52,513 bases of DNA from a candidate division FCPU426 bacterium. Lineage in GTDB: Bacteria > Oederibacteriota > JAAXVQ01 > JAUVAV01. Positions 7,181 to 52,513 of the stretch are shown in pieces. Position numbers and translations under genes: made by a program. The notes beneath the pieces were generated by a model. That model saw only the letters and a program-made list of their open reading frames with translations, made no database searches and was not told the origin of the DNA. The first letter of the stretch is position 1; each line of letters begins with the position of its first letter. The stretch covers positions 1 through 52,513 of the forward strand of contig DAOWGI010000032.1 of the NCBI GenBank assembly GCA_030637655.1. The letters run 5' to 3'.

Positions 7181-8259
7181 CTTTTACTCACTACTGCCAG
7201 TTTCTTTACTTCTTTCAACAATTCAGTCACTGCCCCTTTTTCCGAAACCCGGCGCAAGAGACGTCCTTGGGAAAACAGCATAAAGGCTCCATCCGGAGTC
7301 CCGGCAATGCCCACATCCGCGTGTCGCGCTTCACCCGGCCCGTTCACAACACAACCCATCACAGCCACAGTTAAGGAGCGAGGTTCATTCGTTAATGCCT
7401 TTTCTACTTGCTCTAGTAATTGATTTAATTTGGAAACCGTCCGGCCGCAGGTCGGACATGATATGATATCTACCCCGCGTTGCCTCACTCCGGTGGCAGA
7501 AAGCAATAGATTGGCAACTGTGATTTCCGTTACCGGATCAGCGGTCAAGGAAACGCGGATCGTGTCTCCTATCCCTTCGTACAACAACGGACTTAATCCC
7601 GCAGCGGTTTTAACACTCCCACGCAGCACTCCGCCGGCTTCGGTTATTCCCAGATGCAAAGGCCACTGGCATGTCGCTGCCAGCGCTCGATACGCCGCTT
7701 GGGTGGTTGCGGTATCCGAAGCTTTCACTGAGAGCACCATTTTCCGCACTCCGGCTTTTTCAAAAGCCTTGGCATAATGCAAGGCAGTACTTGCCATAAG
7801 ACGCCCCAAGGCTCGCGGCCCTTTGGCCGGTTGGCGCAGCTTTTCCGGTAATGATCCGGAATTTACACCTATTCGTATGGCTACTTTCTTTTTCGCCGCT
7901 GCCTGGGCCACTTCCAAAGAACGGTCCAGTCCCATATTTCCAGGGTTAATCCGTATTTTGGCAACCTTGGCGGCAATAGCGCCAAGCGCTAAAGTATAAT
8001 CAAAATGGATATCCGCGATAATAGGCAAGGTCGTGCCTCGCACTATTTTTTCCAGCGCCTTGACCGCCTTGGCATCCGGCACTGCCACCCGCACCAATTC
8101 ACAACCCGCTGCTTGCAGACGCTTGATCTGCTGAAGCGTTGCTTTCACGTCCTGGGTTTTGGTGTTGGTCATGGATTGCACTCTGACCGGCGCTCCGTGA
8201 CCCAGGCGTACAGAACCGATACGCACGGATCGCGTTCTGTTGCGGTGCGGATTTCTCAC
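7177..8259 (-). CDS. ispG: HMBPP synthase IspG
   Basis: VQSMTNT, ADIHF, RINPGN, RIGVNSGS, GDTIRVSL, CPTCGR, AVMGCVVNGPGE. Confidence 0.97.
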   Translation of the reverse strand: MRNPHRNRTRSVRIGSVRLGHGAPVRVQSMTNTKTQDVKATLQQIKRLQAAGCELVRVAVPDAKAVKALEKIVRGTTLPIIADIHFDYTLALGAIAAKVAKIRINPGNMGLDRSLEVAQAAAKKKVAIRIGVNSGSLPEKLRQPAKGPRALGRLMASTALHYAKAFEKAGVRKMVLSVKASDTATTQAAYRALAATCQWPLHLGITEAGGVLRGSVKTAAGLSPLLYEGIGDTIRVSLTADPVTEITVANLLLSATGVRQRGVDIISCPTCGRTVSKLNQLLEQVEKALTNEPRSLTVAVMGCVVNGPGEARHADVGIAGTPDGAFMLFSQGRLLRRVSEKGAVTELLKEVKKLAVVSKR

Positions 8260-16633: not shown

Positions 16634-16772
16634 GTAATATGTCAGTGAACTGCGCAGTTAAACAAAGATTGTCATTCCCGAGGGTTTAATCGGGAATCTG
16701 GTTTTTTAAACCGTATCCCCGATACAAGCATTCGGGGATGACAAACAAAAAAAACCATGACTGATCTGTTAC
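16634..16772. mobile_element. 139-bp MITE (GTAA-N4-TCAG ends) with 8-bp target duplication and internal ATTCCC-N-GGGAAT hairpins
   Basis: Ends GTAATATGTCAGT / ACTGATCTGTTAC; CCTACTTT at 16626-16633 and 16773-16780; internal GTCATTCCCG..CGGGAATC...TCCCCGA..TCGGGGATGAC (16671-16742). Confidence 0.75.
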
Positions 16773-37588: not shown

Positions 37589-40500
37589 TTACGGTTGACG
37601 GCCAGTCTCAACCTTGGTTTTTCCCTTCTCAGTAATTTTTACTTTTCCGACTTTCTTCCCTTCAACTTTCACAACATACTCCCCTATTGGAACAACATTA
37701 TAGTAAATGCTACTGGCATCAATATCACGCAGTTTCCTGCCATCCGGATAATAAAGTTCAACCATATAATTCCCGCGCGGAGATATCCCCAGCTGTCCAA
37801 AGCCTTTTACTTTAAGTCTTGTAGGTTTGCCGTCCTCTACCTCCACCTTTCCAAGATTGATCACTGGATACGGATCCGCCTTCACCTTGACGATATAGGT
37901 CCCGACTGGAACAACCTTGAAATAAATATCCCTTACTTTCAAATCACAAAATTTCGTCCCATCAGTTGTATACAACACGGAATCCCAATTTCCCAATGAT
38001 TCAACGCCAATCTGCCCGAAACCTTTTACTTTGACCCTGGTTTTTTCATAAGCTTTAACAATATATTTACCCAAATTCATTTCAGGATACGGTTCAGGAT
38101 TGACTTTAACAATATAAGTCCCTTCCGGAACAATTGAATACTTATAACTGTCACCTTTGATGGTTTTGAACTCTTGGCCGGCAGGATGAAGCAATAGTCC
38201 GTCCCATTTTCCCGGGGAAGTTATGCCTATCCAACCGTATCCAGGGACCTTTTGTTTCACTACCTGATCTTCTTTTATTATTATTTCTCCAAGATTGATT
38301 TCAGGATATTCTTTAGGATATACCTTTACAACATAGGTCCCGGATGGAACTACCGTATAAGATAGTTCATCCCCTTTAATATCCATAAACTTGCGTCCAT
38401 CGCGATAAAAGAGGGAATAATCCCAATTCCCCGGAGATTCCACACCGATCTTCCCGAAACCGGGCGTTTTGAGTTTAACAACATCATTCTCCTTTATCGT
38501 CACCCAGCCCATATCAATTTCAGCATACTCCTTGGGTTTGACTTTCACGTTGTAAGTACCTATTGGAACAATGGTGCAAAACAGCTTGCCTCCGGGAATA
38601 TCCATTAACTTTTTGCCTTTTGAAGTATACAAGCTGTAATCCCATTCACCAACCGAGCTGACACCGATTTGCCCAAAACCGGTCAGTTGCATTTTTAGAT
38701 GCTCATTTTCTTTCACCATGGCAAAACCCAGATCAACTTCAGGAAAATCAGTTGGTTTCACCTTGACCTGATACATTCCCGTGGGCACCCGGATATATTC
38801 CGCGCCTGGAATCTCACGAAAAAATGTGCCATCCGGATAAAACAATTTTGAAGGATAATTGCCCAGAGAACTCACGCCAATAAATCCCAGCCTAACTGAC
38901 AACTTGATAAGTTTGCGCGATGCGACAAGTATATCCTGATAACGGGTAATACCCTCTGCTTTGCAATCCACTTCAAGCTGATAAAAACCCGGTTCAAGCA
39001 GCACCTCTTGGTTGCATTTGGTATCCGTGACCACCACGTTATTCTGAGATATTTTCACAGAATAATCTTCAGGTGCGTCAACTTGAAGTGTACCTTTACT
39101 TTCAAAATAAATACGTGTTGTTTTACCACCCTTAATTGCCACATTTTCACGAACATGTACCTTAGGACCTTCCGTACTTATTTTATATACTCCAATCGGC
39201 AATTCCACCACATCACCGGACTTGAACCTGGCTTTTTCCTTTAGCGTGGATTGACGGCTCACAACAATGATGTCCCCGACTTCAGCCTGAACTTTAAGTT
39301 TTCCTTTTTTCTCATATCCCATGCGGAACATCCAGAGGTTGTTCTCCAGGTCACTATCCTTGCCCACAGTTTTTGCTACCACAGCGGCTTGATACAAGGC
39401 ACCGTCATACTGAAAAGATAATTTAATGCTGCGGCTGCTCAAGGGAGGCAGGTTGCTGATCCTTGTTTTGGAGCTTAATAAAACGTCTTCTCCCCATGCC
39501 CCTTTTGCTATATAGACTTCTATATTCTTCGCCGTAGCAGCACCCAAATTAAAAACTTCCACTTCCAAAATAACCGGCCCCGGCTGATTTCTTTTTTCAG
39601 GCAGCCCGGCGATTTTATTTCCAAAAACACCCACATCAGGCAGAGCATGATTTACTTGTTCAGGCAGAAGCGTTTGCGCGATTTTATCCGCTTCAGCCTG
39701 ACTGGTCGCAACTACCATCATTTCCTGTTGAGTCATGGATTGAACCACTTTAAATCCATTATTAATATAATAATTTCCGCCGTTCAACTTTCGTGTGTTA
39801 AATGACACTTTGTTTTTCGCCTGTCCGGCAGATGAATATTGAAGCAAGCGTGGATCAAATTCAAAAAGGCATTGCCCTTCCGGGATGGTATTTTCCAGCT
39901 TGCCAATAATTTGGTCATTGATTTTGAAAGTCATGTCATGATTGCTGTAAATACTGCGGTCCCAGGGCAGCTCAAAATTTGTAATAAAATAACTTTTTTC
40001 AACATTATTGGTGATTCCCGGGACGCGGAGCGGTTCGGACCAGTTTATGCCCTGATCTTGGCTTTGGGTAATCCAGGTATAATTCCAGTTAAAGGTCGGA
40101 CTATAATAAAACAATGCCAATCCTTCCTCAGTACTAATAATGCCGGGATACTCGTTATACCGATCACCTTTAATGGCACGAATTTCATCCAGCCACCTTT
40201 TATTGTCAAGACTGGTTCGTGTGTAGATTGCGCTTGGTTTTTTTCGGCTGTCACGCCATGCCACACAAACGCCTTTATCCGAAAGACTCTGCAAAGCTGG
40301 TTGGCCCAGACCTTTTCGGCTTTTTACAATCCTATGTGGCTTACCCCAATTCACTCCTCCATCAATGGATTGCATGGCATATATAACCTGATTTTTTTTA
40401 TTTTTCTCAATCCAGAGCATCCAAAGGTTTTCAGGAGTACCACTGATTTGGGGCCATGAAACCCGGCCTTTGACCAACTGCTTTTCCTGCTGCCAGGTCT

Positions 40501-41377
40501 TGCCTTGATCTGGTGATTTTCGCATAAATATGCCGTTTCTGGCGTTTTCCCAAACGAGCAGCAGGTTTGAACCGGACACCCACAGAATTGGATTATAAGC
40601 GCCTTTGCCATGATCTGTTATACGAATTGCAGATGACCAGGAATTACCGCCATCCTCTGAATATTTGAAATAAATTTCACGTTTGCCTCCAGCCCGGCCA
40701 TCTTCCCAGGCAGCATACAAATTGCCATTCGGATCGCCGGCCAGCCAAGGCCAACAGGATTCGCCTTTTGAATTGGTAAGACGCGTAATGTGAGGCGGCT
40801 GATTCGGAAGGAGTTTCGCAAAACATATTTCCTGATCATCATAATATTGAGAATGCCAGATAGCAGCTGCAATTCCATTCTGTGCTGCAAGAAAAAAGGG
40901 CTCTGGAAAGCTTGATTTCTCCAAACCAGGTCGGATCTTTGCCACTCCCGGTCTTACGATACCTCCCCGAATACCCGGAAGCATAATAGTTTCCGAATAC
41001 CGGGGCAAAACACTGCTGACGCGTTTCCATTTCAAGGCCAGCCTGGTCTGCAAATCCAAGGCCGGATTATTCTGCCCCTCAGCAGTGAATAAATCACGCA
41101 TCGCAAAATCACCTGGTTTATCCAAACGGACAAACACATTACCGTTATCCAAGGCTATTTCGCAGATGGATTCATCACCCAAGCGAATAGTATCGTTCTT
41201 CTGAATTTCATCTCCAAGCTTAACCTCTGATATTTGACCATCAGCAGTAGCTTGTTTCACATCATTGACAATAAAATCCACACGTGGATTGGCAGCCTCG
41301 ACATGCAAATGTGCCCCAAGTACAATAATGTTTGAGAATAGGTAACATATAATGTGCTTTGTAATAATTCTTCTCAT
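37589..41377 (-). CDS. large secreted multidomain protein (FecR-like, Asp-box propeller, CARDB-like, tandem ~73-aa repeats)
   Basis: Signal peptide; Asp-boxes SEDGGNSW, SPDQGKTW, SIDGGVNW, SQDQGINW; VFNLG..A.N...DLENN; six GFG.IG..S.G.W...VP.GTY.VKV repeats. Confidence 0.75.
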   Translation of the reverse strand: MRRIITKHIICYLFSNIIVLGAHLHVEAANPRVDFIVNDVKQATADGQISEVKLGDEIQKNDTIRLGDESICEIALDNGNVFVRLDKPGDFAMRDLFTAEGQNNPALDLQTRLALKWKRVSSVLPRYSETIMLPGIRGGIVRPGVAKIRPGLEKSSFPEPFFLAAQNGIAAAIWHSQYYDDQEICFAKLLPNQPPHITRLTNSKGESCWPWLAGDPNGNLYAAWEDGRAGGKREIYFKYSEDGGNSWSSAIRITDHGKGAYNPILWVSGSNLLLVWENARNGIFMRKSPDQGKTWQQEKQLVKGRVSWPQISGTPENLWMLWIEKNKKNQVIYAMQSIDGGVNWGKPHRIVKSRKGLGQPALQSLSDKGVCVAWRDSRKKPSAIYTRTSLDNKRWLDEIRAIKGDRYNEYPGIISTEEGLALFYYSPTFNWNYTWITQSQDQGINWSEPLRVPGITNNVEKSYFITNFELPWDRSIYSNHDMTFKINDQIIGKLENTIPEGQCLFEFDPRLLQYSSAGQAKNKVSFNTRKLNGGNYYINNGFKVVQSMTQQEMMVVATSQAEADKIAQTLLPEQVNHALPDVGVFGNKIAGLPEKRNQPGPVILEVEVFNLGAATAKNIEVYIAKGAWGEDVLLSSKTRISNLPPLSSRSIKLSFQYDGALYQAAVVAKTVGKDSDLENNLWMFRMGYEKKGKLKVQAEVGDIIVVSRQSTLKEKARFKSGDVVELPIGVYKISTEGPKVHVRENVAIKGGKTTRIYFESKGTLQVDAPEDYSVKISQNNVVVTDTKCNQEVLLEPGFYQLEVDCKAEGITRYQDILVASRKLIKLSVRLGFIGVSSLGNYPSKLFYPDGTFFREIPGAEYIRVPTGMYQVKVKPTDFPEVDLGFAMVKENEHLKMQLTGFGQIGVSSVGEWDYSLYTSKGKKLMDIPGGKLFCTIVPIGTYNVKVKPKEYAEIDMGWVTIKENDVVKLKTPGFGKIGVESPGNWDYSLFYRDGRKFMDIKGDELSYTVVPSGTYVVKVYPKEYPEINLGEIIIKEDQVVKQKVPGYGWIGITSPGKWDGLLLHPAGQEFKTIKGDSYKYSIVPEGTYIVKVNPEPYPEMNLGKYIVKAYEKTRVKVKGFGQIGVESLGNWDSVLYTTDGTKFCDLKVRDIYFKVVPVGTYIVKVKADPYPVINLGKVEVEDGKPTRLKVKGFGQLGISPRGNYMVELYYPDGRKLRDIDASSIYYNVVPIGEYVVKVEGKKVGKVKITEKGKTKVETGRQP

Positions 41378-41395
41378 CCAGGCACCTTGCGCTTT

Positions 41396-41764
41396 TTATG
41401 TTTTCCCAAAATACTCTCGGGTTTCGGCTTTAATCCAAAACAGCAGCAATGGAATACAAACGAAAGCAGTTAAAAGACCGAAAAAACCCAAACCAATCAA
41501 GGCCAAGCCATATACCCATACCCAGGACCGGGGCTTAAGAAAGAGCGGCACAATATAAGCAATTACCGTAACAAACAATGCTATCAGCATAAAAACAGCT
41601 GTCCCAGCTTGCGCCCCGACTTTTCCGAATCCTCCGACATCAACAATTACCCAAGTGCCGCCGGCAAAAAACGCAGTGCAAACAATTGCCATAAATACGC
41701 AAAATACTTTAAACCACAAAACTACGTTTGGTTTTTGATTCGTAATAAGATCAGACATTTTCAA
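41396..41764 (-). CDS. hypothetical membrane protein
   Basis: 122 aa, 3-4 TM segments, GGAG upstream. Confidence 0.65.
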   Translation of the reverse strand: MKMSDLITNQKPNVVLWFKVFCVFMAIVCTAFFAGGTWVIVDVGGFGKVGAQAGTAVFMLIALFVTVIAYIVPLFLKPRSWVWVYGLALIGLGFFGLLTAFVCIPLLLFWIKAETREYFGKT

Positions 41765-41787
41765 TCACTCCTTTTTACCTTCCATAT

Positions 41788-42075
41788 TCACAGCAATTCA
41801 ACAGATATATCATAAAGTCTTTTTCTCGCAGCATTGAATTCATCGTTTTCTTCTTTTAAAGGCACTCCATTTTTATGTAAAACAACATCGGAAAACGAAG
41901 CCATGCCGCGATATTGCCGCAGTATTTTTCTCGCAACATTCTTTTTTATAATTTCATCAGATGTTTCACTAAACTCCTCTAAACATCTTTTAAAAAACAA
42001 ACTCCATTCTTCTTCATCATAATCATTAAGTATTTAAATTATTTCATTTATCAAACTCGTTATTTCATTTTTCAT
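41788..42075 (-). pseudogene. DUF6966-like putative immunity gene with internal stop
   Basis: ATG 42075 after AGAGGA: MKNEITSLINEII*ILNDYDEEEW...YRGMASFSDVVL; in-frame TAA at 42034-42036. Confidence 0.55.
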
Positions 42076-42090
42076 AAAATCTATTATCCT

Positions 42091-42273
42091 CTAATGTTTT
42101 ATATGCCATTTTTCCAAAACTTCTATACCCGGAAGTTCCCACGACTTTCCAATTATTATTTGCTCTGTTTGTCCAACATAGACATCGCCCTGCGAGGCAA
42201 TTTTACCCACATGTATTTTAGTTCCTTTAGGTATTTTTACATTTCTTAAATATTTTTGCCGTACTTGCCGCCC
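42091..42273 (-). pseudogene. orphan toxin-tip fragment
   Basis: Frame without ATG: ...VKIPKGTKIHVGKIASQGDVYVGQTEQIIIGKSWELPGIEVLEKWHIKH*; 5' end replaced by the 60-bp repeat. Confidence 0.45.
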
Positions 42274-42305
42274 TTATCCGATTAACCGAAAGCCGTCCCC
42301 TACCA
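42246..42305. repeat. 60-bp exact direct repeat, copy 1 (RAYT element left end)
   Basis: TTAAATATTTTTGCCGTACTTGCCGCCCTTATCCGATTAACCGAAAGCCGTCCCCTACCA, identical to 48511-48570. Confidence 0.92.
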
Positions 42306-42362
42306 CAAAGTTCATCAACTGATCCAATTGAGCCCTCTTTCTATTTCAATTCTTTCTTCACC

Positions 42363-42665
42363 CTATACTATAGCTCGCACAATGTAGAGAAAATTGATAA
42401 GTACAGAAATAATATAAAAAGCTATTGAAATACCAATAATAATTATTTTTATTCCTAAATCAGGGGGCTTTCCTGACAACATTAGTTTAATGTAAATAAA
42501 AATCAGCGCAACCAAACTCAGTACAAATATTATTCTTACAAAATACTCAAAAAAACTCCCTATTCCCCTAGAAAATCCAAATATTCCAAATAATAAATCA
42601 AGTGTTTTTGGAGTAATGGCACAAATTGCAGGTATTATATAGATCAAATACAAATATATCTTCAT
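42363..42665 (-). CDS. small AT-rich membrane protein, putative immunity protein
   Basis: 100 aa, 3 TM segments, starts 1 nt after the stop of the putative toxin. Confidence 0.55.
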   Translation of the reverse strand: MKIYLYLIYIIPAICAITPKTLDLLFGIFGFSRGIGSFFEYFVRIIFVLSLVALIFIYIKLMLSGKPPDLGIKIIIIGISIAFYIISVLINFLYIVRAIV

Positions 42666-42666
42666 T

Positions 42667-44337
42667 CTACTTTATCCCCCTGATCTTTAAATATATTGAC
42701 ATTCCGGGAATTTCTTCCAAAGCAGCAATTCTCTGTTGTCTAGTTGTTGTATCTTTTGAAGAATTACCATATTCAATCCAAGGCAATACATCAACATTGA
42801 AATGTCCGGTTTTATCTTCTAAAGGAGAAATAAAATCATAGCTACCACTATTTTCTGGAGTTGAAATCAATTTCCCACTACTATCATAAATCGCCTGTAA
42901 TCCTAAAAACTTGTCTTTTCCTCTGTAATCTTTATTTCCTGAGGTGCCTATATTATGCGTTGGAGTCTCTCCCAATGATGTCCAATATTCCGGGTCAATA
43001 TCTTTCTCTGAAAACGGAATTCCGGTCTCATAATTATGTCTGTGGTAATGCAGTTGCTTCTGTTGTTTTGGCGACAATTTATTCCAATATTTTTCCGAAA
43101 TTATATTTGGATCATTAGGTGGACTCCAGCTGCTATTTAATTTCTCTTTTTCAGCACCTTCATGATATTTAATCGGTGTATTACGAATGTGCCCAACTTC
43201 CGGCCCATCACCCGGGGTGTTCAATTCCAGGTCTACATTTTCCCGATTAGTACAAAAATGCGTAGCAGCGGAAGATTGATAAATTGATTGCGTTACCGCG
43301 CAAAAAACCTGTTTGCCTTTTGGCACGACAAACTTAATAGGCACTGTCTGTTTCTTGCCGGCTGCGGATATTACAATCTCACCGGCCAATTCACGCCTGC
43401 CGATCTCCAGCCTGGGTAATACCTGAATCTTTAAATACGCGTTACTTTTTAACAACGCATGATTCACTTCGGGAAGGAATTTCACTTTCCCCCAGAGTTC
43501 CTTACCAGGCTTTATCGAAAAGTCTGTCAGTCCGCCGCCCAGATTCCGAATCTTAATAACCGTACCAAGAGTGACAGGATCAACCTCTCCCAACTCCACT
43601 TGTACGTTAAAGTCAACTTGTTCCACTTTGACCAAAACTTGGGCACTGTCTTTCATTACTTTGCCGGCGAGCGTCTCCAAGTTAATGATAAATGGGTATT
43701 CCTCTTTTTTCGTATCTTGAGCATGCGCAACCAACTCAAGCGTTCTCTTTTCACCTGCTGCGATCTCAATGGTTTTATCGATTGATCCTTCACCTACAAA
43801 CCCAACAATAAAATCTCGATATGGATTAAAAACCGTGGCTTTTAAGCTATGGGATTTGTCATCATTATTGGCGATTTTAATTGCGCAGTGCTGTTGATAA
43901 TCGCGTTTGACATTAAAAACATAGTTTCTCTCCAGGAATACCAATCCGCCTTGGGCAACGGAAAAAGATCGAACATCACCCGCAAAGGGACCGTCTTTCA
44001 AATTGATAACAATGACATATTCTAATTGATCGCCGGGTTTGAGTTTATCGAGTTGGATGGAGTGCATGGTATCAAGAGGACTTTTTACAATTTTCCATTT
44101 CGAGGTATTAATTTTTCGGTATTTGACATAGCCGGCGGAACTCAAACGAGTGGACCAATGAATAATCACACTTTGATTGGGAATAATCATGCCGTCTTGG
44201 GGAGACGCATTTTCAATCGCTACTTTGGCTTCAGCTTTACTTAAATATGCGCCGGGTATGATTTTCTGTTGGCTTTTTCCGAATCCCAAAAGGAAAGGCA
44301 GGATTAATAATACGGCAATACTTTTTCTTTTAAGCAT
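42667..44337 (-). CDS. secreted FN3/Ig-like protein with putative C-terminal polymorphic toxin domain
   Basis: Signal peptide, I.W.T...S.GYVKY FN3-like start, Ig-like middle; AT-rich tip HYHRHN...H...YDSSG.L...NSGSYDF...GHFNVDVLPWIEYGN. Confidence 0.6.
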   Translation of the reverse strand: MLKRKSIAVLLILPFLLGFGKSQQKIIPGAYLSKAEAKVAIENASPQDGMIIPNQSVIIHWSTRLSSAGYVKYRKINTSKWKIVKSPLDTMHSIQLDKLKPGDQLEYVIVINLKDGPFAGDVRSFSVAQGGLVFLERNYVFNVKRDYQQHCAIKIANNDDKSHSLKATVFNPYRDFIVGFVGEGSIDKTIEIAAGEKRTLELVAHAQDTKKEEYPFIINLETLAGKVMKDSAQVLVKVEQVDFNVQVELGEVDPVTLGTVIKIRNLGGGLTDFSIKPGKELWGKVKFLPEVNHALLKSNAYLKIQVLPRLEIGRRELAGEIVISAAGKKQTVPIKFVVPKGKQVFCAVTQSIYQSSAATHFCTNRENVDLELNTPGDGPEVGHIRNTPIKYHEGAEKEKLNSSWSPPNDPNIISEKYWNKLSPKQQKQLHYHRHNYETGIPFSEKDIDPEYWTSLGETPTHNIGTSGNKDYRGKDKFLGLQAIYDSSGKLISTPENSGSYDFISPLEDKTGHFNVDVLPWIEYGNSSKDTTTRQQRIAALEEIPGMSIYLKIRGIK

Positions 44338-44442
44338 TGATCACCTGGATTGTTAGAAATCAAATATACTTCCCCGGCTATTAAAGCATGCATCAATTTA
44401 GCATATTCTATTATGCTTTGTCGGCAAAATATTATGAAGCCA

Positions 44443-44467
44443 GTAGGAGGACGTTGTTCGGCAATAC
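44443..44467. repeat. cassette-boundary motif copy A
   Basis: GTAGGAGGACGTTGTTCGGCAATAC. Confidence 0.7.
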
Positions 44468-44531
44468 TTTGTGACCTGCCTTTGGAAACCGCGAAGCGGC
44501 GGCAAAGGGTCGAATACATTGATTTGTTAGG

Positions 44532-44981
44532 TCACGGTCTTCCTTTTATTGGATACTGTTCCAATATTTTCTTGCATTCTGTAATAACACTTGGTAAATA
44601 ACTTTGATCTATTTCAAATGTAAATTTATGTTGTTGGGATAAATGATCAGGTGTCAAATCCACCTCCATTTCGATATGCCCAAGATTTTTAGCTTCAAGT
44701 TTTAAATACAATTGAGGTTCCATACAAGCTAATTCAGCTTTAGCTTTTAAATCACCATTGATATTCTCAACCCCAGATAAAAATTGTGAAATTTCCGGCA
44801 AATGAATAATGTTTCCTTGAACCCATACGTTTGAGCCTCGAGTTCCACAATGGACAGTAACATTTATCCAGTTCGCATCCCAATAATCGTCTGAATTAGG
44901 AAATTGCCGCTTATGAACCCATATTTGCAGACCTGCTAATTTTAAATCCGGAATTCCCAGTTCATCGATTTTATTTTCCAT
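44532..44981 (-). CDS. WapI-like orphan immunity protein
   Basis: RQFPNSDDYWDANWI...MEPQL.L...G.I....IDQSYL pattern. Confidence 0.5.
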   Translation of the reverse strand: MENKIDELGIPDLKLAGLQIWVHKRQFPNSDDYWDANWINVTVHCGTRGSNVWVQGNIIHLPEISQFLSGVENINGDLKAKAELACMEPQLYLKLEAKNLGHIEMEVDLTPDHLSQQHKFTFEIDQSYLPSVITECKKILEQYPIKGRP

Positions 44982-45012
44982 AATTTTTTCGGACCTAACC
45001 TAAGTTTATCTG

Positions 45013-45049
45013 TAAGTATGCAGTACGGGATATTGTTCGGGAATACATT
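45013..45049. repeat. cassette-boundary motif copy B
   Basis: TAAGTATGCAGTACGGGATATTGTTCGGGAATACATT. Confidence 0.8.
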
Positions 45050-45331
45050 ATGAAACAATTACACGAACCAAAAAAGGATCGGACCATGAGAAGCAGCAAG
45101 AAAAACGATGGAACCCCCTGGGCATGCCCGGGGTATCTCTCCTGACCTCGCCGCATCCTGCTATGGCAGGGCGATATCCCCGGAGCAGAAAGGTCCGCAG
45201 TCCTCCACGCGCATGCACGGGGTCCCCTGCGAAGGGGATGAAGAATGAATTGTATCTCAGGTATATCATAAGGAAGGTAAATCCGGCAAAAATATGGACC
45301 GGCCGGGGAATACCAACGCATGTTTATTGCT

Positions 45332-45766
45332 TCAAGCACTATTAATTCCAACCAGACAGGCAGCAATATCCTGCTCAAATGATTTAAATATCCCTTCAAT
45401 CCCTTCAACCAAAGGTTTGAGTTTGGCAAATTCAAGTTCAAACGCATACCCATAAACAAAAAAGTTGCGAAAGGCCAAATAGCGTTTAAGCCCGTTAGCA
45501 GTCGATTCAGAGATTATTTTAGATTCAACCGTCAATTGGAGCAGATCACGATGCCAGGAAGGACCTACAGGTAATGTCAAACCATAGTGTCGCACTATTT
45601 GTTTAATAATGTTTTCAGTACCGTTATAAAAGTTATGAATCAAGGTGGCAATTCCGGCTATTTCCAGAGCAGAAAGATTGGAACCGGAACAATCCTGCGG
45701 AAATTTCGCAAGTACTTGCTTTATATTATCTAATTCAGCATTAACCCGATCATTGATTTCAGCCAT
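45332..45766 (-). CDS. HepT-like HEPN toxin (RX4H motif altered to RNFFVY)
   Basis: IHNFYNGTENI, P.GPSWHRDLL, YLAFRNFFVYGY; coupled to the MNT gene. Confidence 0.8.
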   Translation of the reverse strand: MAEINDRVNAELDNIKQVLAKFPQDCSGSNLSALEIAGIATLIHNFYNGTENIIKQIVRHYGLTLPVGPSWHRDLLQLTVESKIISESTANGLKRYLAFRNFFVYGYAFELEFAKLKPLVEGIEGIFKSFEQDIAACLVGINSA

Positions 45767-46028
45767 ACAAAGGAATTCCTTCCTGGCGAATTATATTCGT
45801 GAATTTATTTTCAACGTCAAGATCGATAACATCTACTGGTTGCGTAAGATTGAATAGAAGTTCTCCATAAAAATCAAAAAAATATTCAGGAGAAATCCCT
45901 TCTACAGCCAAATCAATATCAACGCCTTTCGTAAGGGCATTCGCATTTGAACCAAAAAGCAGGATTTTTTTCACATGATAGCGTTTGGCCAAATCTATAA
46001 TAATTTCTTTTTCTTCATCCGAGATCAT
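45759..46028 (-). CDS. MntA-like minimal nucleotidyltransferase antitoxin
   Basis: LFGS-X9-DIDLAV, PVDVIDL, I.QEG; ATG 46028 after CAGGAG. Confidence 0.85.
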   Translation of the reverse strand: MISDEEKEIIIDLAKRYHVKKILLFGSNANALTKGVDIDLAVEGISPEYFFDFYGELLFNLTQPVDVIDLDVENKFTNIIRQEGIPLYG

Positions 46029-46222
46029 ATTAACGGCACTCCTGAACAATTTAATTATGCATTTATATTACTTCCAAGCGAATTATATAATCACAAACTA
46101 CAATTGGCAAGGAACATTTGATTTCACTGCTTTAATAAGAATTATTTGGTGTTTCGCCGCAGAATCAACTTGCTTTCTTCCCCACACAGAGCTAATGTCC
46201 ATATCGAGGAATTTCGAGGAGT

Positions 46223-46251
46223 AGTACGGGAACGTTGTTCGGGAATACATT
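46223..46251. repeat. cassette-boundary motif copy C
   Basis: AGTACGGGAACGTTGTTCGGGAATACATT. Confidence 0.8.
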
Positions 46252-46257
46252 TTCGTT

Positions 46258-48072
46258 TCATAAAAGAGCAAATTTCTTTAACCGTGATTCAATCGCTCCG
46301 GAATTTCTCTTGAACACGCGGCAAATGGTCTTTATATCCTTAATCTTTCCGCAAACATATTTCAGCTCCTCATCCTCCTCTTCAGCCCAGGGTTCATAGG
46401 CTCGACGGTACGCTTTTCTGGCGTTTAAAACCGCTTCGTGGTTATAGCCGAAAGTTTCCTTTTTCAAGGAACAGGATTGGTATTTCTCATCGATCAAATT
46501 AATCCGCGGGTCAGCATAGTGTTTTTCGTCTCCGGTTTTCACCTGAGCCTGATCGACAGAATCAGCCGCTTGATATTCCCGTATGGCCTTTAAAAATATC
46601 CGGCCATACTTGGCTAACTTTACTCTGCCAACCCCCGAAACATTCAATAATTCTTGTTCATTATTGGGTTGTTGGGATGCCATTTCCAAGAGCGCGGCGT
46701 CGCTAAATACGATATACCCAGGAACATTTTGCTCATCCGCCAGCCTTCTTCGGATTTTTTTAAGTTGAATAAACAATATGTCATTCAAACCAACCGGCCT
46801 GGTGGAATGAACCATGGCCGGTTGGTTGATTTCTTTGGCAGTAACCAGCTCAGACTCCTGCATCAGAGCTTTCAAGCTGCGGCCGCAGCATACGTCGCAT
46901 GCTGCTCTGCAATCTCCGGTATTTTCATCAAAGTAAGCCAGCACAGCCTTGTGCCGACACCGCTTACTGTCTGCCAATCGAAAAAAGTCTATAGTTTTTT
47001 GGTGGGTGGCCTGCGCCAATTGCGGGTCTGATATTCCCTTTAAAAAATGCTCATAATTTTTCACGTCCACCCAGGAATAAAACAGCAGGCAATGGCTGGA
47101 AAGGCCGTCGCGGCCGGCACGGCCGATCTCCTGATAATAATTTTCAATGGTGCGGGGCATGTCGCAATGAATGATGAAGCGGACATTGGATTTGTTGATG
47201 CCCATGCCGAAAGCCACGGTGGCAACAACTACATCGGCTTTGTCCCGAATAAAAGCTTCCTGATTGCGACTTCTCTCAGAATCCGACAAGCCGGCATGAT
47301 ATGGCAGAACGGAAACCCCGCGAGCTTGCAAAAAGCTGACTAAGCTATCGACGTTTTTCTTGCTCCAGCAATAAATAATTCCGCTTTGCGATGGATTCCG
47401 GCGTATGAAATGTAATACGGCCTGCCGGATGTTCACGCCTTCTCCCTTTTTCTGGAAAGTCAGCCACAAATTGGAACGGAAAAAGGAACCTTTGTAGGCC
47501 TCGGGTTTTACCATGCCCAATTGGTGGACAATATCCTCCGCAACTTGCTTGGTGGCGGTAGCAGTGAGAGCCAGCATTGGAATATTGCCCAACTGGGTTT
47601 TCAAACCTTGCAATTTCCTATAAGCAGGCCGGAAATCATGCCCCCATTGGCTTATGCAATGTGCTTCGTCCACGACCACCATGCTGATGGGGCAGGCTTG
47701 CAGAAAATCGCGCAAAGATCCCTCCAACGCCTCGGGAGCCAGGTAGACAAGCTCATACTTCCCTTTCCGGAAATCGTTCAGGCGTTGGCGGCGTTCCTGA
47801 AAAACCACTGAGGAATTGATTAAAGTGGCTTTAAAGCCGAATGCCAGCAGCGCGTCAACCTGATCTTTCATCAAGGAAATCAATGGTGAAATGACCAAAA
47901 CCGTGCCTGTGAGAATCCGCGCTGGTATCTGAAATGTCAGTGACTTGCCCGCTCCGGTAGGCATGATGCCGAGGCAATCCCGGCTGGAAAGCACAGCCTG
48001 AATTATCTTTTCCTGGCCGGGCCGGAATTCATGATAACCGAATGTGTTTTTTAACACTTCCTGAGGATTCAT
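46258..48072 (-). CDS. recQ: RecQ-family helicase with Zn domain, HRDC and extra C-terminal HTH
   Basis: [56 protein letters not shown]...C...CDVC, HRDC. Confidence 0.9.
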
Positions 48073-48089
48073 TATGCTCTCACTTTCTT

Positions 48090-48123
48090 TAAGTACGCGG
48101 TACGGGACGTTGTTTGGGAATAC
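48090..48123. repeat. cassette-boundary motif copy D
   Basis: TAAGTACGCGGTACGGGACGTTGTTTGGGAATAC; 29/34 identical to copy B. Confidence 0.8.
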
Positions 48124-48129
48124 GCTGAC

Positions 48130-48226
48130 CCACGCGCCGGCCGCCTTTCCCGATCTCGATCATTTTGCTGATGTCAGCAAAATGATCCTCAATACGATGC
48201 CCGCTATTGAAACACGCCATCTTTGA
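48130..48226 (-). pseudogene. dinD: dinD fragment
   Basis: [30 protein letters not shown] resembles the DinD N-terminal region; includes a 14-bp-arm palindrome at 48158-48187. Confidence 0.6.
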
Positions 48227-48388
48227 TAAATTCGCGATAAAACTCAACCGCTTTTGCTTGTTTCGTATGAAAATGTGCCAATATCTCTTTTTTTGCCTGC
48301 CACTCATTCTTTTTCTTCCCTATTAAGACTGCATGACCTGTCCACGGATATTTATCCAATGCTTCAACGGTCTTGATAAAACCAGCGC

Positions 48389-48570
48389 GTACGGGATTGC
48401 CCGGTTTAATCCGCGGGTAATAATATGGTAAACTCCACCAGGTATGCTTAATCGTTTCTGTCTCGCCATACTTCTTATGACAACATCAATCAAAAATAAT
48501 TGCACATTTATTAAATATTTTTGCCGTACTTGCCGCCCTTATCCGATTAACCGAAAGCCGTCCCCTACCA
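48389..48570 (-). mobile_element. internally deleted RAYT/Y1-transposase element
   Basis: Left end TGGTAGGGGACGG, then MARQKRLSIPGGVYHIITRGLNR (RAYT-type N-terminus), then an abrupt junction to ATCCCGTAC. Confidence 0.75.
48511..48570. repeat. 60-bp exact direct repeat, copy 2
   Basis: Identical to 42246-42305. Confidence 0.92.
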
Positions 48571-48615
48571 GTCCCTACCACTACCACACCAAGTAGGTGG
48601 TAGTCCTTATGCTTC

Positions 48616-50400
48616 TTAAGATTCCGGTTTCGCTCCACGGACTATCCACAATTCATTGCCATTATCTTTTGCAATTAATTCCAATTCCGGCAGGCTGGCT
48701 GCCATTTTATTCATTATATTTATGGTTTTATCGTCTCGGGCCACGATATAGTAAATATTTAATTTTTTTAACATGGCATTAAACTTATCCACACTTATAT
48801 TAGCAGCCCCGGTTGAAATATCTTTTATAATATGAAAATCAAAAAAATATTTCTCCTGTGCATTGGACGATCTCGCTGTCCAGCCGCCTATCATTTTATG
48901 CTGATGATGCATTTGATAATACAGTATTTCTAATGCGTTCCAGCCCCAGGGCGGAGCAGGTAAATCCAAAACCACGTTATTTTCATTTGAATCCTGTCGA
49001 ATAATATTATAAATTTCCGGGACTCTCGGTTCATGTGTTGGAAATGGGATTGGCAGATATTCAACCAAGATTATTAACAGCAAAAATATTTGTAAAATTC
49101 TTTTTTTAACCGCATTCACTTTGATATTTTCAATTGTATAGTAGCCGGCAATAGAAACCAATACAGCCGCGGACATAATCGCCATAATAATGAATCTTGC
49201 CGGAACACGGGCTCCATTGATAACAGGTAAATAGTGAATTATTGTATAGGGCATTGGAAAAATTACTTTTATCCCATGAAATGAAAAAAGATGTGTTCCG
49301 GGAATGGCGTTGAGTGAAATACCTTTAAAATTCAAAAACGGTCCCAGGGAAAAAAGAATAAAAACAGCGCCAACAATGCACCAAAACCGCACGCTATTTT
49401 TGGACCAATATTTAACCCCGGCCAGAACACATAGTATAATTACCGAATATCCAACAAACCCGTGCATTTCAGCGCCTGGAAAAGGTATTTTCATTTTAGA
49501 AAACATTTTTACCATAAAATCACCCCAAACAAAATGCATATCCGAAGGCATTACTAAATGCAGGACATCCATTGAAAACCGTTCGGCCATGCCCCATCCT
49601 TCACCATGAATCGACATAATGTTATATTCTTTTATTGCTTTGAAAGCCATGATCCAAAAGGGGGTTAAAACCAGAATATAAACTCCGGCAATCGGCAATA
49701 CTTTTTTAAGTATTTCTTTATATTTTTTTAAGTCTAATTGAGCTTCATATATAACCCAAATACCCAATAGAATAATCAAATAAATAAAAAGCTGATAATC
49801 ACAAAAAAATTGATACCCCAGGAGCACCCCCAATGCCAACAAAGTAGTCCACCTGAATTGTTTCACATAATAATGCCAGAGTAACACAATCCAGGGCATG
49901 GCTTCCGTGCTGATCATATTAAGATGACCATGAGCATGCGCCATTTGATTGGGCGCAAAAGCAAATATAATTCCACTGATAAATGCCAACATGCGGCTGG
50001 GAACATACTGTAATACTAAAAAATATGTTCCCAGAGCGGCCACGATAAAAGAAAACATAAACAAAATATTGTAAGTCAAAATCCAATTTCCGGAACTAAA
50101 ACTCAAAAGGAAAGCAAGCGCAGCTTTGGCAGGTGTCCAAGCATGAAGAAAGAGATTGACTTGCAATGGATAATACATAAAATCCGTAATAAATGGATTT
50201 TGTAATTGAAGAATGCTTTTTTTGAAATGCCAAAATCCCCACAAGAATTGATATACATCCCCGGAAACCCCGGGTAATTTGGCTTCAAAATCCAAAATAA
50301 GCGGATAGGTAAATACAATTGCCGCAACGACAAAACCTACGAGGGCAATAACATCTTTTTTTATCTGAAAAATTTTATTTTTCCCGGTATTATCTAACAT
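48616..50400 (-). CDS. polytopic membrane protein, YfhO/GT-C glycosyltransferase-like
   Basis: GDVYQFLW..W, YYP, IFAFAP....HGHLN, LGP, RVPARF, C-terminal periplasmic domain; AT-rich; probable start 50400. Confidence 0.65.
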   Translation of the reverse strand: MLDNTGKNKIFQIKKDVIALVGFVVAAIVFTYPLILDFEAKLPGVSGDVYQFLWGFWHFKKSILQLQNPFITDFMYYPLQVNLFLHAWTPAKAALAFLLSFSSGNWILTYNILFMFSFIVAALGTYFLVLQYVPSRMLAFISGIIFAFAPNQMAHAHGHLNMISTEAMPWIVLLWHYYVKQFRWTTLLALGVLLGYQFFCDYQLFIYLIILLGIWVIYEAQLDLKKYKEILKKVLPIAGVYILVLTPFWIMAFKAIKEYNIMSIHGEGWGMAERFSMDVLHLVMPSDMHFVWGDFMVKMFSKMKIPFPGAEMHGFVGYSVIILCVLAGVKYWSKNSVRFWCIVGAVFILFSLGPFLNFKGISLNAIPGTHLFSFHGIKVIFPMPYTIIHYLPVINGARVPARFIIMAIMSAAVLVSIAGYYTIENIKVNAVKKRILQIFLLLIILVEYLPIPFPTHEPRVPEIYNIIRQDSNENNVVLDLPAPPWGWNALEILYYQMHHQHKMIGGWTARSSNAQEKYFFDFHIIKDISTGAANISVDKFNAMLKKLNIYYIVARDDKTINIMNKMAASLPELELIAKDNGNELWIVRGAKPES

Positions 50401-50405
50401 GCCTG

Positions 50406-51269
50406 CTAATTTCCAATCGCTATCCAATTCACCAGGCATTCGGCCCCAGCGCCACTTAAATCAACTGATTTAAGTGCAAAACCGGTGGCAGTGATATTAT
50501 AAACACGAACTACAACATTAATATCATGTCTGTTTGGTGTAGCAACAACAATTGGTGGATTGCTAAAACCATATATAGTAACGCCCATATCCCCATATTT
50601 ATCTGTTCCAATCATACCGGTGACAATTTTGGGATTACTAATCCCGCCATTAACTGTCGGCGCCCAGGGCGCTTTGGCTGAGGTTACTTGCCCATCACCA
50701 ATTTCATAACTTCTGATTGTTCCATCGGCGATTTCATTCCAGGTTATATTTTCAGCGGCTATATCTGAACTTATAATGCTCCTGTCTACAATCTTGTTTG
50801 AAGTTATCGTATTATCAGCAATATCTGAATTTGTTACAGCACCATCAACAATTTTTGATCCGGTGATTGAATTATCCGTTACCTGATTCGCATGCTCCGC
50901 CCGCATGGCATACGGTATACTACTCAGCGGTTTCCTCGGTGTCATGGCAGATGGTTCTCCGGAAACCCACATCTCCAAATAGTACTGAGAATTAAAATCC
51001 AATCCTGCTATGGCAAAGGTCGTAATGGATCCCAGCAACGCGGTAAAATAGCCTCTTTTCGTTGTTACAGTGTGGTTTTCGCTCCATAATTGAGTCCCGC
51101 CTGACAAAGAATTCCAAAAACTTATGGTAATGCCATAAGAACTATCCGCTACCGCTATACCGGCAGAATCGGTCAGTCTGCCTTGATAATTAATCGTAAC
51201 CGGCACAGCCGCTTGTACGCTCATGGCCATTGTAAACATTATGATGATAGCACTTGAAATCTTTTTCAT
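50406..51269 (-). CDS. secreted tail-fibre-like protein
   Basis: Signal peptide, INYQGRLTD...LWSE.H...G.F...LG, IT..KI.DG repeats, C-terminal P.VVATP...GF....NWIAIG; ATG 51269 after GGAGG. Confidence 0.65.
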   Translation of the reverse strand: MKKISSAIIIMFTMAMSVQAAVPVTINYQGRLTDSAGIAVADSSYGITISFWNSLSGGTQLWSENHTVTTKRGYFTALLGSITTFAIAGLDFNSQYYLEMWVSGEPSAMTPRKPLSSIPYAMRAEHANQVTDNSITGSKIVDGAVTNSDIADNTITSNKIVDRSIISSDIAAENITWNEIADGTIRSYEIGDGQVTSAKAPWAPTVNGGISNPKIVTGMIGTDKYGDMGVTIYGFSNPPIVVATPNRHDINVVVRVYNITATGFALKSVDLSGAGAECLVNWIAIGN

Positions 51270-51350
51270 TTTTTCCTCCGGCACATTAATGTTTTATTCC
51301 TAAATCCCTGGTCTTTTCATCCCAGAACAAAACCAGGGGGATATTAGTCA

Positions 51351-51980
51351 CTATTTGATTAACGCGATTTTCTTTTTTACAACCGTTGTCTTACCATCAT
51401 TGCTGGTGGCTTTAAAATACAAAATATAGACTCCATTGGCCATATTAGCCGCGTTCCAGATCCAGCGGTTACGCCCGGCCGGCAGCCTGTCCCATCTCCT
51501 GGATAAAACTTCCTGATTCTGCGGTGTGAATATTTTGAGTTCGACTTTTGCCGCAACTGCCAGGTCAAAAACAATATTCCCCCGTGTCCCCCGAATCGGA
51601 TTTGGAGCCACGTAGACCCAATCTTTGTGCATGATTTCTCCGGTAAAGTAACGGATCGCGGTCTGGGTTACGGTTATTGTCCTGGTAAGCGTAAGTGTCG
51701 GAGTAACGGTTACTGTAGGTGTAACTGTTGGTGTGGGGTTGGTTACAAAATAATCATTGAAAAACCCATGCTGAATGGACTTGGTCTCGCTCCATACCTG
51801 CCCAATTCCCAGATCACCCAGGCAATCAATTTTTTTGATATTCGCGCCTGTACAGGTATTGCCCCCGGCATTGATAATCATCTCATCCACACGGTAGTTG
51901 GCGGATGAGGCGGCAAATACGGAGGTACACATATAAAGCAATAAAATGCTACTGCATAAAATAACCGAATAACTTCGCAC
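51351..51980 (-). CDS. secreted protein with Pro/Thr linker and FlgD/T9SS-CTD-like C-terminal Ig domain
   Basis: Signal peptide, PTPTVTPTVTVTPT, YVAPNP...W...MANGVYI...KK.ALIK. Confidence 0.7.
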   Translation of the reverse strand: MRSYSVILCSSILLLYMCTSVFAASSANYRVDEMIINAGGNTCTGANIKKIDCLGDLGIGQVWSETKSIQHGFFNDYFVTNPTPTVTPTVTVTPTLTLTRTITVTQTAIRYFTGEIMHKDWVYVAPNPIRGTRGNIVFDLAVAAKVELKIFTPQNQEVLSRRWDRLPAGRNRWIWNAANMANGVYILYFKATSNDGKTTVVKKKIALIK

Positions 51981-52120
51981 ATGTACTCCTAAAATGATGT
52001 GTTATAACTTCTTTCCAAATATAGCAAAAACTAATTTTTTCTATCTTATTATGCATCCGAAGAAAAATACAGTTGTTTCCTTAGGTCTGCATGAAATATT
52101 TATCTTTTTCCACTTCTGAC

Positions 52121-52175
52121 GGGCGAACACAAGGTTCGCCCCTACGCCATCCGGGCCGACAATAGAATCGACCCT
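52121..52175. repeat. REP-like hairpin doublet
   Basis: GGGCGAAC-ACAAG-GTTCGCCCCTAC followed by a degenerate GGGCCGAC..TCGACCC. Confidence 0.6.
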
Positions 52176-52272
52176 TTCGGTGTGACGTCCCCCTGCATGC
52201 TTCGCTATGTCAATTTTTATTTTTCGTCAATTTGTCAAAAAACAATTCTCACTTTGACGATCGAAGGGAGGC

Positions 52273-52491
52273 TTATTTCTTTTTTCTATTCACAACTTTC
52301 CAGGTTACCTGCGCCAACCCGATCAATGTCAACACCAGACCCACAATTGTCACTGACCTGGTCAATTCCCGCAAATAGCCAAGTACTCCCAGATACACAA
52401 AGGTCGTATTCACTGCGAATCCGCCAAAAAGCAGGATTAATCCGAGCGGCAATAGTATTTTTTTCTTTTTTACTTTTGGTTCATTATTCAT
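52273..52491 (-). CDS. small membrane protein
   Basis: 72 aa, basic termini, two TM segments. Confidence 0.5.
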   Translation of the reverse strand: MNNEPKVKKKKILLPLGLILLFGGFAVNTTFVYLGVLGYLRELTRSVTIVGLVLTLIGLAQVTWKVVNRKKK

Positions 52492-52513
52492 AAGTCACCA
52501 GACTTTTTTTGTA

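Follow-up and report, generated by a model that had tools for sequence, protein, structure and literature searches.

Solitary repeats that lie between unrelated accessory genes raise the question of whether they are sites at which genes were captured or leftovers of mobile elements that once landed there. We examined this question in a contig of a candidate division FCPU426 bacterium (GenBank assembly GCA_030637655.1, contig DAOWGI010000032.1), which was analysed over its entire 52,513 nucleotides and is called the window here (contig C100 of assembly G000, completeness 91.55%). Its genes lie to 99% on the minus strand and the skew is -0.126. A preliminary description of positions 44443 to 48570 had read a recurring motif as the GTAG-footed end of a REP-associated tyrosine transposase (RAYT; REP, repetitive extragenic palindrome), and had proposed that one-ended events of this enzyme stacked one gene per copy in an integron-like array without an integrase. 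Judged by its sequence and arrangement, the motif is the terminal inverted repeat (TIR) of TIRtron elements, the transposase of which (TIRYT) belongs to TnpA-Y1 subclass 2.1. The region itself we are inclined to view as a hotspot of accessory genes, in which such elements landed with one polarity and later wore down to single ends.

The motif as the end of a transposable element

In the assembly, the 20-nt form of the motif had 37 matches at up to 4 substitutions and 34 at up to 3, as compared to 0-3 for six shuffled patterns. These matches, which we call family B, comprise solo copies, clusters and nine closed, inward-facing pairs (18 of the 37 matches). Eight pairs delimit miniature inverted-repeat transposable elements (MITEs) of 101-167 bp, and the ninth an element of 1102 bp on contig C82 (TIRs at 7561 and 8662). 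The Y1 transposase of the C82 element is 339 aa long and has a DnaA_C-like helix-turn-helix (HTH); the right TIR of the element overlaps the stop codon of the transposase gene. PF01797 was found above cut-off in this protein and in the intact protein of a relative (G007), and their C-terminal HTH matched PF08299 with E values of 1.8e-5 and 2.4e-3, both under the curated cut-off. The pairing around the intact C82 gene and the MITEs agrees with the earlier view, in which the motif ends a Y1/HUH transposase element, and speaks against a regulator site.

TIRYT genes were detected in all ten family genomes and in 20 of 99 phylum genomes (E <= 1e-40), and each TIRYT in the relatives has a TIR pair of its own. 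For 33 distinct near-full-length genes the inverted pair was recovered by script in 24 cases and by eye in 6 more, with 3 unclear or cut. An internal period of 8 nt was present in 54 of 74 paired ends vs 15 of 190 unrelated candidates, and is predicted to represent tandem sites for the HTH. The TIRs of family B, and of a second family A described below, agree with the consensus GGGGWSAS at the first six positions and differ at positions 7-8; both GGGGWSAS-type and A/B-type patterns occur in the relatives. No consistent target-site duplications were seen at the MITEs on inspection by eye.

Folding of 48090-48135 (z +1.49 and +0.02) and of the left end upstream of the transposase remnant (z +0.10 and +1.03) gave no hairpin better than shuffled sequences. 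The bases flanking the motif are GTAG at 44443, GTAC at the three other window copies and various elsewhere in the genome. With no fold and no foot conserved genome-wide, the reading as a GTAG-footed REP/RAYT end was ruled out.

Complete MITEs were also observed between housekeeping genes on contigs C40 and C98.

Copies in the window

Four solo family-B TIRs lie on the plus strand of the window, at 44443..44467 (degenerate, inner 7 nt missing, 2 substitutions and 1 insertion), 45023..45046 (2 substitutions), 46224..46248 (1 insertion, 10 nt from the recQ stop codon) and 48100..48123 (1 substitution). A gapless search recovers two motif copies in the window, with 0 expected from 100 shuffles. 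Five copies had been claimed. The fifth, a supposed truncated copy at 48389, was rejected; it is minus-strand code for the conserved N-P-V-R of the transposase, and the same bases are found in the intact gene of a relative. The dinD fragment and the transposase remnant therefore make up one interval and not two. The cargo labels hold, and such ends do punctuate accessory genes. Inspection of the window copies by eye showed no group II intron ends at them.

All four copies cease to match the full 27-nt TIR at nt 20-21, with 48104 scoring 4/7 beyond that point. The copies at 45023 and 48100 have 11/14 nt in common beyond GTAC, and the join there is thus not at the tip; probably one was copied along with its flank, or both bear a stereotyped footprint. 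Partial TIR tips or GTAG-type units lie directly outside full TIRs at window 48570-48600, C98 58312, C82 7547 and L071 16247, and stacked tips are also listed for G007:C21. These stacked tips give a hint of new insertions landing at older ends.

Transposase remnant and family A

The transposase remnant at the edge of the region carries a different TIR, family A. It consists of the left end, leader and first 23 TIRYT codons (48401..48569, minus strand; foot 48565-48569, TIR 48538-48564) and a middle piece of the gene (48216..48399, minus strand, including the coding bases 48389-48397). Both parts match, at 97% identity, an intact TIRtron on G007:C8 (TIRs at 77584 and 78693), in which both ends carry the 48564-type repeat; to the intact C82 protein the two pieces are 59% and 53% identical. 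One deletion, of ~297 nt at 48400, has taken out the HUH and Tyr motifs, and a second everything past 48216, where the dinD fragment is fused at a join resembling microhomology. The remnant is left without its catalytic part. A second family-A left end, missed in the preliminary description, was found at 42239..42304 (minus strand); it has a GGTAG foot, the TIR and ~35 nt of leader, ends after 61 nt, and is 100% identical to G007:C8 over 66 nt. Its presence places two further open reading frames (ORFs), of 556 and 100 aa, within the punctuated stretch. The GTAG foot is present at 4/4 family-A left ends.

The families share 18/27 nt, and the reported 9/10 match between the first 10 nt of the motif and the left end at 48559-48568 (minus strand) was confirmed. 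It had been taken to mean that the motif is the partner, right end of the remnant at 48570. This candidate was ruled out: the cognate element of the remnant has the family-A TIR at both ends, which means that the array does not consist of one right end of the remnant after another. Searching the genome for both end motifs and an intact carrier, as had been suggested, gave the C82 element for family B, with the motif at both ends, whereas the remnant-type end has another carrier, G007:C8.

Family-A MITEs of ~63 bp, barely more than two head-to-head TIRs, were observed at G013:C4 3016-3078 and on G013:C389.

Comparison with relatives and strains

The recQ gene was found at 71-94% nucleotide identity in four genomes. 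In G003, which belongs to another genus (recQ 94%), an intact dinD is followed by a complete MITE of ~150 bp and then recQ; the downstream end of this MITE is at the position equivalent to 48100, with the same outer flank. The 48100 copy of the window is therefore a deletion leftover, and a single deletion, which took away the 3' portion of dinD together with the MITE body and its other end, accounts for the form seen in the window. The G003 contig ends within recQ, and its comparison covers 48100 and not 46224. A pattern search combined with reading, which may miss worn copies, gave no TIR within 200 nt on either side of recQ in G001 (85%) or G008 (71%); in G012 (82%) there was none upstream, and the contig ends at the 3' end of the gene.

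Part of the stretch is present in ten sequencing runs, each labelled cold seep metagenome. Four of them were compared, by contigs only, and uncovered stretches in runs X4-X6 were not counted as evidence. In X5, a diverged strain is represented by a contig (45720-47220, 56 other letters) that keeps the junction of the MNT-HEPN toxin-antitoxin pair, TIR and recQ at 46224. In another X5 contig, a single one of depth 4.4, position 44548 is followed by 26 other letters and then by 45026; the WapI immunity gene is absent. One edge of this loss is at or near the TIR tip, as alignment resumes at 45026, and the other lies 81 nt from the 44443 copy, with the attC-like half site described below retained. 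In both X5 and X6, 45057-45243 is skipped (joint 45056>45244), a segment containing a 135-bp hairpin-ended element. Small indels were seen at or near the 45023 and 46224 tips. Among the six joints listed for the four runs none ran from TIR to TIR or backward; contigs drop rare forms, and this is therefore no proof of absence. A platform of the integron kind would gain or lose modules exactly at the motif; the sole loss observed, that of WapI in X5, was not motif-to-motif.

Tip-anchored copying of ends

In 133 of 145 same-family pairs, which are not independent of each other, the shared sequence extends no more than 10 nt beyond the tip on the outside, while it runs 19-989 nt inward. Stacks of ends were copied locally on C96 and in G009. 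It is clear that the ends move and form stacks, and the comparison indicates tip-anchored copying of the ends themselves; it does not extend to cargo travelling with them.

Origin of the array

We lean towards a hotspot of accessory genes that received two TIRtron families with their MITEs, all in one polarity, and in which these were then eroded to single ends. A TIRYT, with its HUH core bearing one tyrosine and its C-terminal HTH, would move its own element and, in trans, short two-ended MITEs. The TIR tip is the mobile boundary, as the sequence comparison shows; from what is known of the family, the HTH may read the 8-nt repeats of the TIR and a single strand may be cleaved at the tip. The elements settle in such a way that the transposase gene runs along the G-rich, gene-rich strand, often beside older ends. 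Later deletions, some by microhomology and some possibly by the transposase, would take away the body along with one end and leave the other end joined to neighbouring acquired DNA. Such a deletion origin is seen for 48100 and the remnant, and by extension may hold for 44443, 45023 and 46224. If polarised elements lose their body and one end, the surviving left ends face one way and the right ends the other; the window holds two left ends on the minus strand and four right-type ends on the plus strand. The cargo would have come by mixed routes, as an integron-type cassette, a toxin-antitoxin pair and a dinD-recQ block exchanged between genera.

In the twenty loci compared, intact TIRYT genes lie on the G-rich strand in 23/23 cases, and co-orientation in the window is therefore expected. 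Several points weigh against the hotspot reading. Because genes in these genomes favour one strand in general, the 23/23 count is in part confounded. Arrays of the single-end type, which erosion does not by itself explain, are present on C96 (6-7 counted ends, all plus), G009:C2 (7 consecutive solo ends, all minus) and C30 (3-4 ends, all plus). Adjacent solo ends, counted in pairs that are not independent, faced the same vs the opposite way in 26/7 cases with a tighter family threshold (p 0.001) and 33/17 with a looser one (p 0.03); with a strict library the count was 12/5 (p 0.14). The 12/17 set includes short palindromes. A stack of ends of ~200 bp on C96 has been copied several times, each copy ahead of a different gene. 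The inner 7 nt are missing from 6/8 family-B copies in arrays vs 2/10 elsewhere (p 0.054; one weak match, on C118, was dropped before counting). Finally, recQ sits tightly between two ends, with spacers of 27 and 10 nt.

A rival explanation is an integron analogue, the strong form of the earlier idea, which we regard as rather unlikely. A trans-acting TIRYT would bind a solo TIR, cleave single-stranded DNA either at the tip or ~18-21 nt further in, and join or copy the adjacent DNA, one module per end. The single-end-type arrays hold integron-like cargo (toxin-antitoxin pairs, Fic, AlbA, ORF6N, BrnT, Nmad2), their polarity varies between arrays, and solo ends follow no strand rule genome-wide (39 with vs 31 against gene direction). 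Copied segments begin at TIR tips, the window copies share their inner cut-off at nt 20-21, and the X5 alignment resumes at the 45026 tip; a related enzyme, TnpA-REP, can cleave in vitro on the 5' or the 3' side of its repeat and carry out strand transfer (PMC8266576). However, 48100 is accounted for as a MITE leftover, recQ in G001, G008 and G012 has no TIR in the flanks examined, the flank shared by 45023 and 48100 puts the join away from the tip, no cargo gene was found duplicated along with its end, and the contigs of the four runs hold no TIR-to-TIR skip or backward joint. The co-orientation of 4/4 copies alone has a p of 0.125. The earlier idea of capture thus loses ground through the MITE leftover, the three recQ homologues and a WapI loss that is not motif-to-motif, and retains the tip-anchored end copying at other loci. 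Its general form, a stacking system without an integrase in which solo TIRs are joining sites served in trans, adding single-stranded modules (true-integron cassettes included) one per end and building polar arrays in many phyla, we give the same rather low credence.

A purely passive accumulation seems improbable. In this case MITEs and TIRtrons would land at any site, persist only where acquired DNA is non-essential and be worn down by deletion processes of the host, the transposase having no part in the joins. The MITEs between housekeeping genes fit this idea, as do the landing of an unrelated miniature element in the window and the microhomology-like join of the remnant and dinD, but it does not agree with the end stacks that were copied locally on C96 and in G009, the partial tips directly outside TIRs (C98 58312, C82 7547, G007:C21) or the same inner cut-off in the array copies. 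That the motif is a host regulator binding site near regulated genes can hardly be credited: it is genome-wide, intergenic and has an internal 8-nt period, but it also forms both ends of MITEs and of an intact transposase gene, overlapping the stop codon, and the own pair of every TIRYT in the relatives largely refutes this reading. On the hotspot reading, the ends appear to mark and remodel junctions, which stops short of a demonstrated role as cassette exchange sites.

Arrays at other loci

At G000:C96 3400-10800 (L020), co-oriented ends of at least four TIR families were observed, and the ~200-bp stack together with a REP recurs before AlbA/RecG-like, UPF0158, Mut7-C, VapBC, ORF6N and Fic genes. 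This array is a better test case than the window for one-ended copying. G009:C2 84500-104400 (L062) has two intact TIRtrons and ~10 solo ends, nearly all on the minus strand. Many of these ends have a GATNG-like foot, and they alternate with genes for BrnT, HEAT, ADP-ribosylglycohydrolase, Nmad2 and NucS. On C30 (54855-57989, L016), four co-oriented family-B ends lie between comEC and a lipoprotein gene, around DUF6933; a 438-bp SpoIIAA-like gene is duplicated there, and its second copy stops 5 nt from a tip. G000:C82 5065-8662 (L021) has a solo TIR, a 782-aa LVIVD-repeat secreted protein and then the intact TIRtron, with the look of a composite element.

Relation to known systems

TIRtrons and TIRYTs were described by Di Nocera et al. 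2013 (PMC3733652), equated with TnpA-Y1 subclass 2.1 by Quentin et al. 2018 (PMC6006769) and correspond to RAYT group 1 of Bertels et al. 2017 (10.1101/119735). In the available parts of these papers, to which our statements on them refer, the elements have a Y1 HUH core, a DnaA_C-like HTH and no REP hairpins, and their TIRs begin with GGGGAC, may overlap the 3' end of the gene and occur as singles, dimers and clusters, all as seen here. In contrast, window TIRs deviate from the published GGGGWSAS, a majority feature in the papers, at positions 7-8, and the same parts contain no solo ends alternating with cargo, strand rule, 8-nt period or element-specific TIR families stacked at one locus. 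Subclass 2.1 transposases occur in ~15% of the surveyed strains (PMC6006769), and no biochemistry of them was found in the literature searched. REPtrons share a related Y1 enzyme, and GTAG or GTAC just outside the window ends (PMC8266576). However, the window motif is unfolded, its foot is not kept genome-wide, and the ends are inverted terminal repeats and not hairpins.

Integrons and integrase-less attC clusters are like the region in their one-gene modules and their toxin-antitoxin and immunity cargo, and one module here has core and inverse-core sites. They differ in that the assembly has no IntI above cut-off, the punctuating motif is not attC and precise excision was not seen. ISCR elements move adjacent DNA by one-ended transposition, and they and IS91 also use an HUH enzyme with a fixed tip and a variable other end, which fits the solo-end copies; however, their transposase body stays with the captured DNA, whereas the window ends are symmetric and the body is gone. 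IS91 likewise mobilises adjacent DNA by one-ended events, but has a distinct oriIS and terIS and no TIRs (PMC13181058).

Clusters of TIRs have been published before (PMC3733652), and arrays alternating with cargo were not found in the literature searched, with subscription journals largely outside it. The nearest published case is that of subclass 2.1 tnpA-REP fragments interspersed with prochlorosin genes, for which a diversifying role was proposed (10.1101/2020.03.09.984088). There, too, truncated copies of the same subclass alternate with variable genes, but the cargo is a single paralogue family, and a later note of the authors sees no strong evidence for or against causation. The region behaves as a non-autonomous insertion sequence/MITE system, and is a cluster of TIRtron ends and not a member of the REPtrons, integrons or IS91.

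Named pairs of enzyme and TIR are available from the locus and its relatives, namely C82 for family B and G007:C8 for family A, as are MITE substrates, candidate positions of cleavage and a strand rule. How a single-strand HUH enzyme moves an element with symmetric ends and no hairpins is therefore directly testable. If solo ends do join cargo, they would be a widespread route of gene stacking that is invisible to integron finders; if not, such arrays are a warning that cassette systems can be mimicked.

Cargo genes

The WapI-family immunity gene (44532..44981, minus strand; PF24716, E 3e-30) is probably a stranded integron cassette. Just upstream of it is a core site, GTTAGGTC (44992..44999, minus strand), the exact complement of an inverse core, GACCTAAC (44533-44526), which overlaps the stop of the gene. 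The inverse core and a stem form an attC-like half site (44468..44533, minus strand) that is cut by the 44443 TIR before the right-hand core. With this attC-like layout, the module looks like an integron cassette. The 13 nt before the core (45000-45012, minus strand; degenerate left box, 5-nt spacer) resemble an attI layout. The integron integrase IntI (TIGR02249) was not found above cut-off in the assembly (best 85/265 bits), and the gene was not found in 98 other phylum genomes; together with the two core sites this indicates a module from a true integron elsewhere, stranded here. When G000 and 19 loci were scanned with a rough pattern for attC, which integrons carry at each cassette, 34 matches were obtained, none of which besides the half site was read as attC. 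The 104 WapI homologues listed without context were left unused.

The toxin-antitoxin pair consists of a HEPN (HepT-like) toxin gene (45332..45766, minus strand; PF20797, E 2e-20) and an MNT nucleotidyltransferase antitoxin gene (45759..46049, minus strand; PF18765 (Polbeta), E 2e-8). The 135-bp non-coding element with hairpin ends (45108..45243) has an 83% copy on C47 and copies of 72-84% in the relatives G004, G006, G009 and G003, is polymorphic among strains, and is presumably an IS200/IS605-like miniature. recQ (46258..48072, minus strand) encodes the sole RecQ helicase of the assembly and is patchy in the family (3/10 relatives). The internal dinD fragment (48124..48223, minus strand; DinD NF008573, E 1.3e-7), fused between remnant and TIR, is 76% identical to the intact G003 dinD at the nucleotide level.

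The interval from the 44443 motif to the second left end holds the gene of a 556-aa secreted protein (42667..44337, minus strand), a possible polymorphic toxin, followed by the 100-aa membrane ORF (42363..42665, minus strand), its possible immunity partner; neither has a Pfam match. An Atlas search with the C-terminus of the 556-aa protein gave unnamed clusters only. No DNA-level relatives of the WapI, MNT-HEPN or 556-aa genes were listed among 98 genomes, in one search with the best 3 candidates per genome. Past the second left end (41788-42231, minus strand), a short frame without Pfam match, which we take to resemble a toxin C-terminal fragment, is followed by a DUF6966 gene; with 42363-44337 this stretch may form a polymorphic toxin-immunity tail. 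Secreted-protein paralogues with a C-terminal sorting domain were not significantly associated with TIRs (7/67 TIR gaps vs 60/1073, p 0.11), and the family was present at 3/32 TIRYT loci.

Further observations

The 607-aa gene on the right flank, considered for an empty-site comparison, was matched in 1/10 family genomes at 34%, which is too distant; that locus entered the end census alone. Rfam over 41000-52513 gave a single chance-level match, located outside the array. The search for related loci in genome contigs led to only 3 loci; a metagenome scan gave 0 loci with the exact motif and 2 with a looser one, neither with a transposase or array seen, which were taken as chance.

Elsewhere in the window, two tandem paralogous genes (395 and 381 aa; 899-1142 / 2326-2569 and onward) lie at a spacing of 1427 nt, with an inverted-repeat element at 1985-2226 between them. 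The C-terminus of a 1262-aa BNR protein has repeats of 219 nt (73 aa) at 37665-38680. Large unrelated repeat families with 41 and 16 copies, both containing GGGACGC, are spread across many G000 contigs, and another frequent repeat unit of the assembly, with GTTTAACTGCGCAG, has a window copy near 16662.

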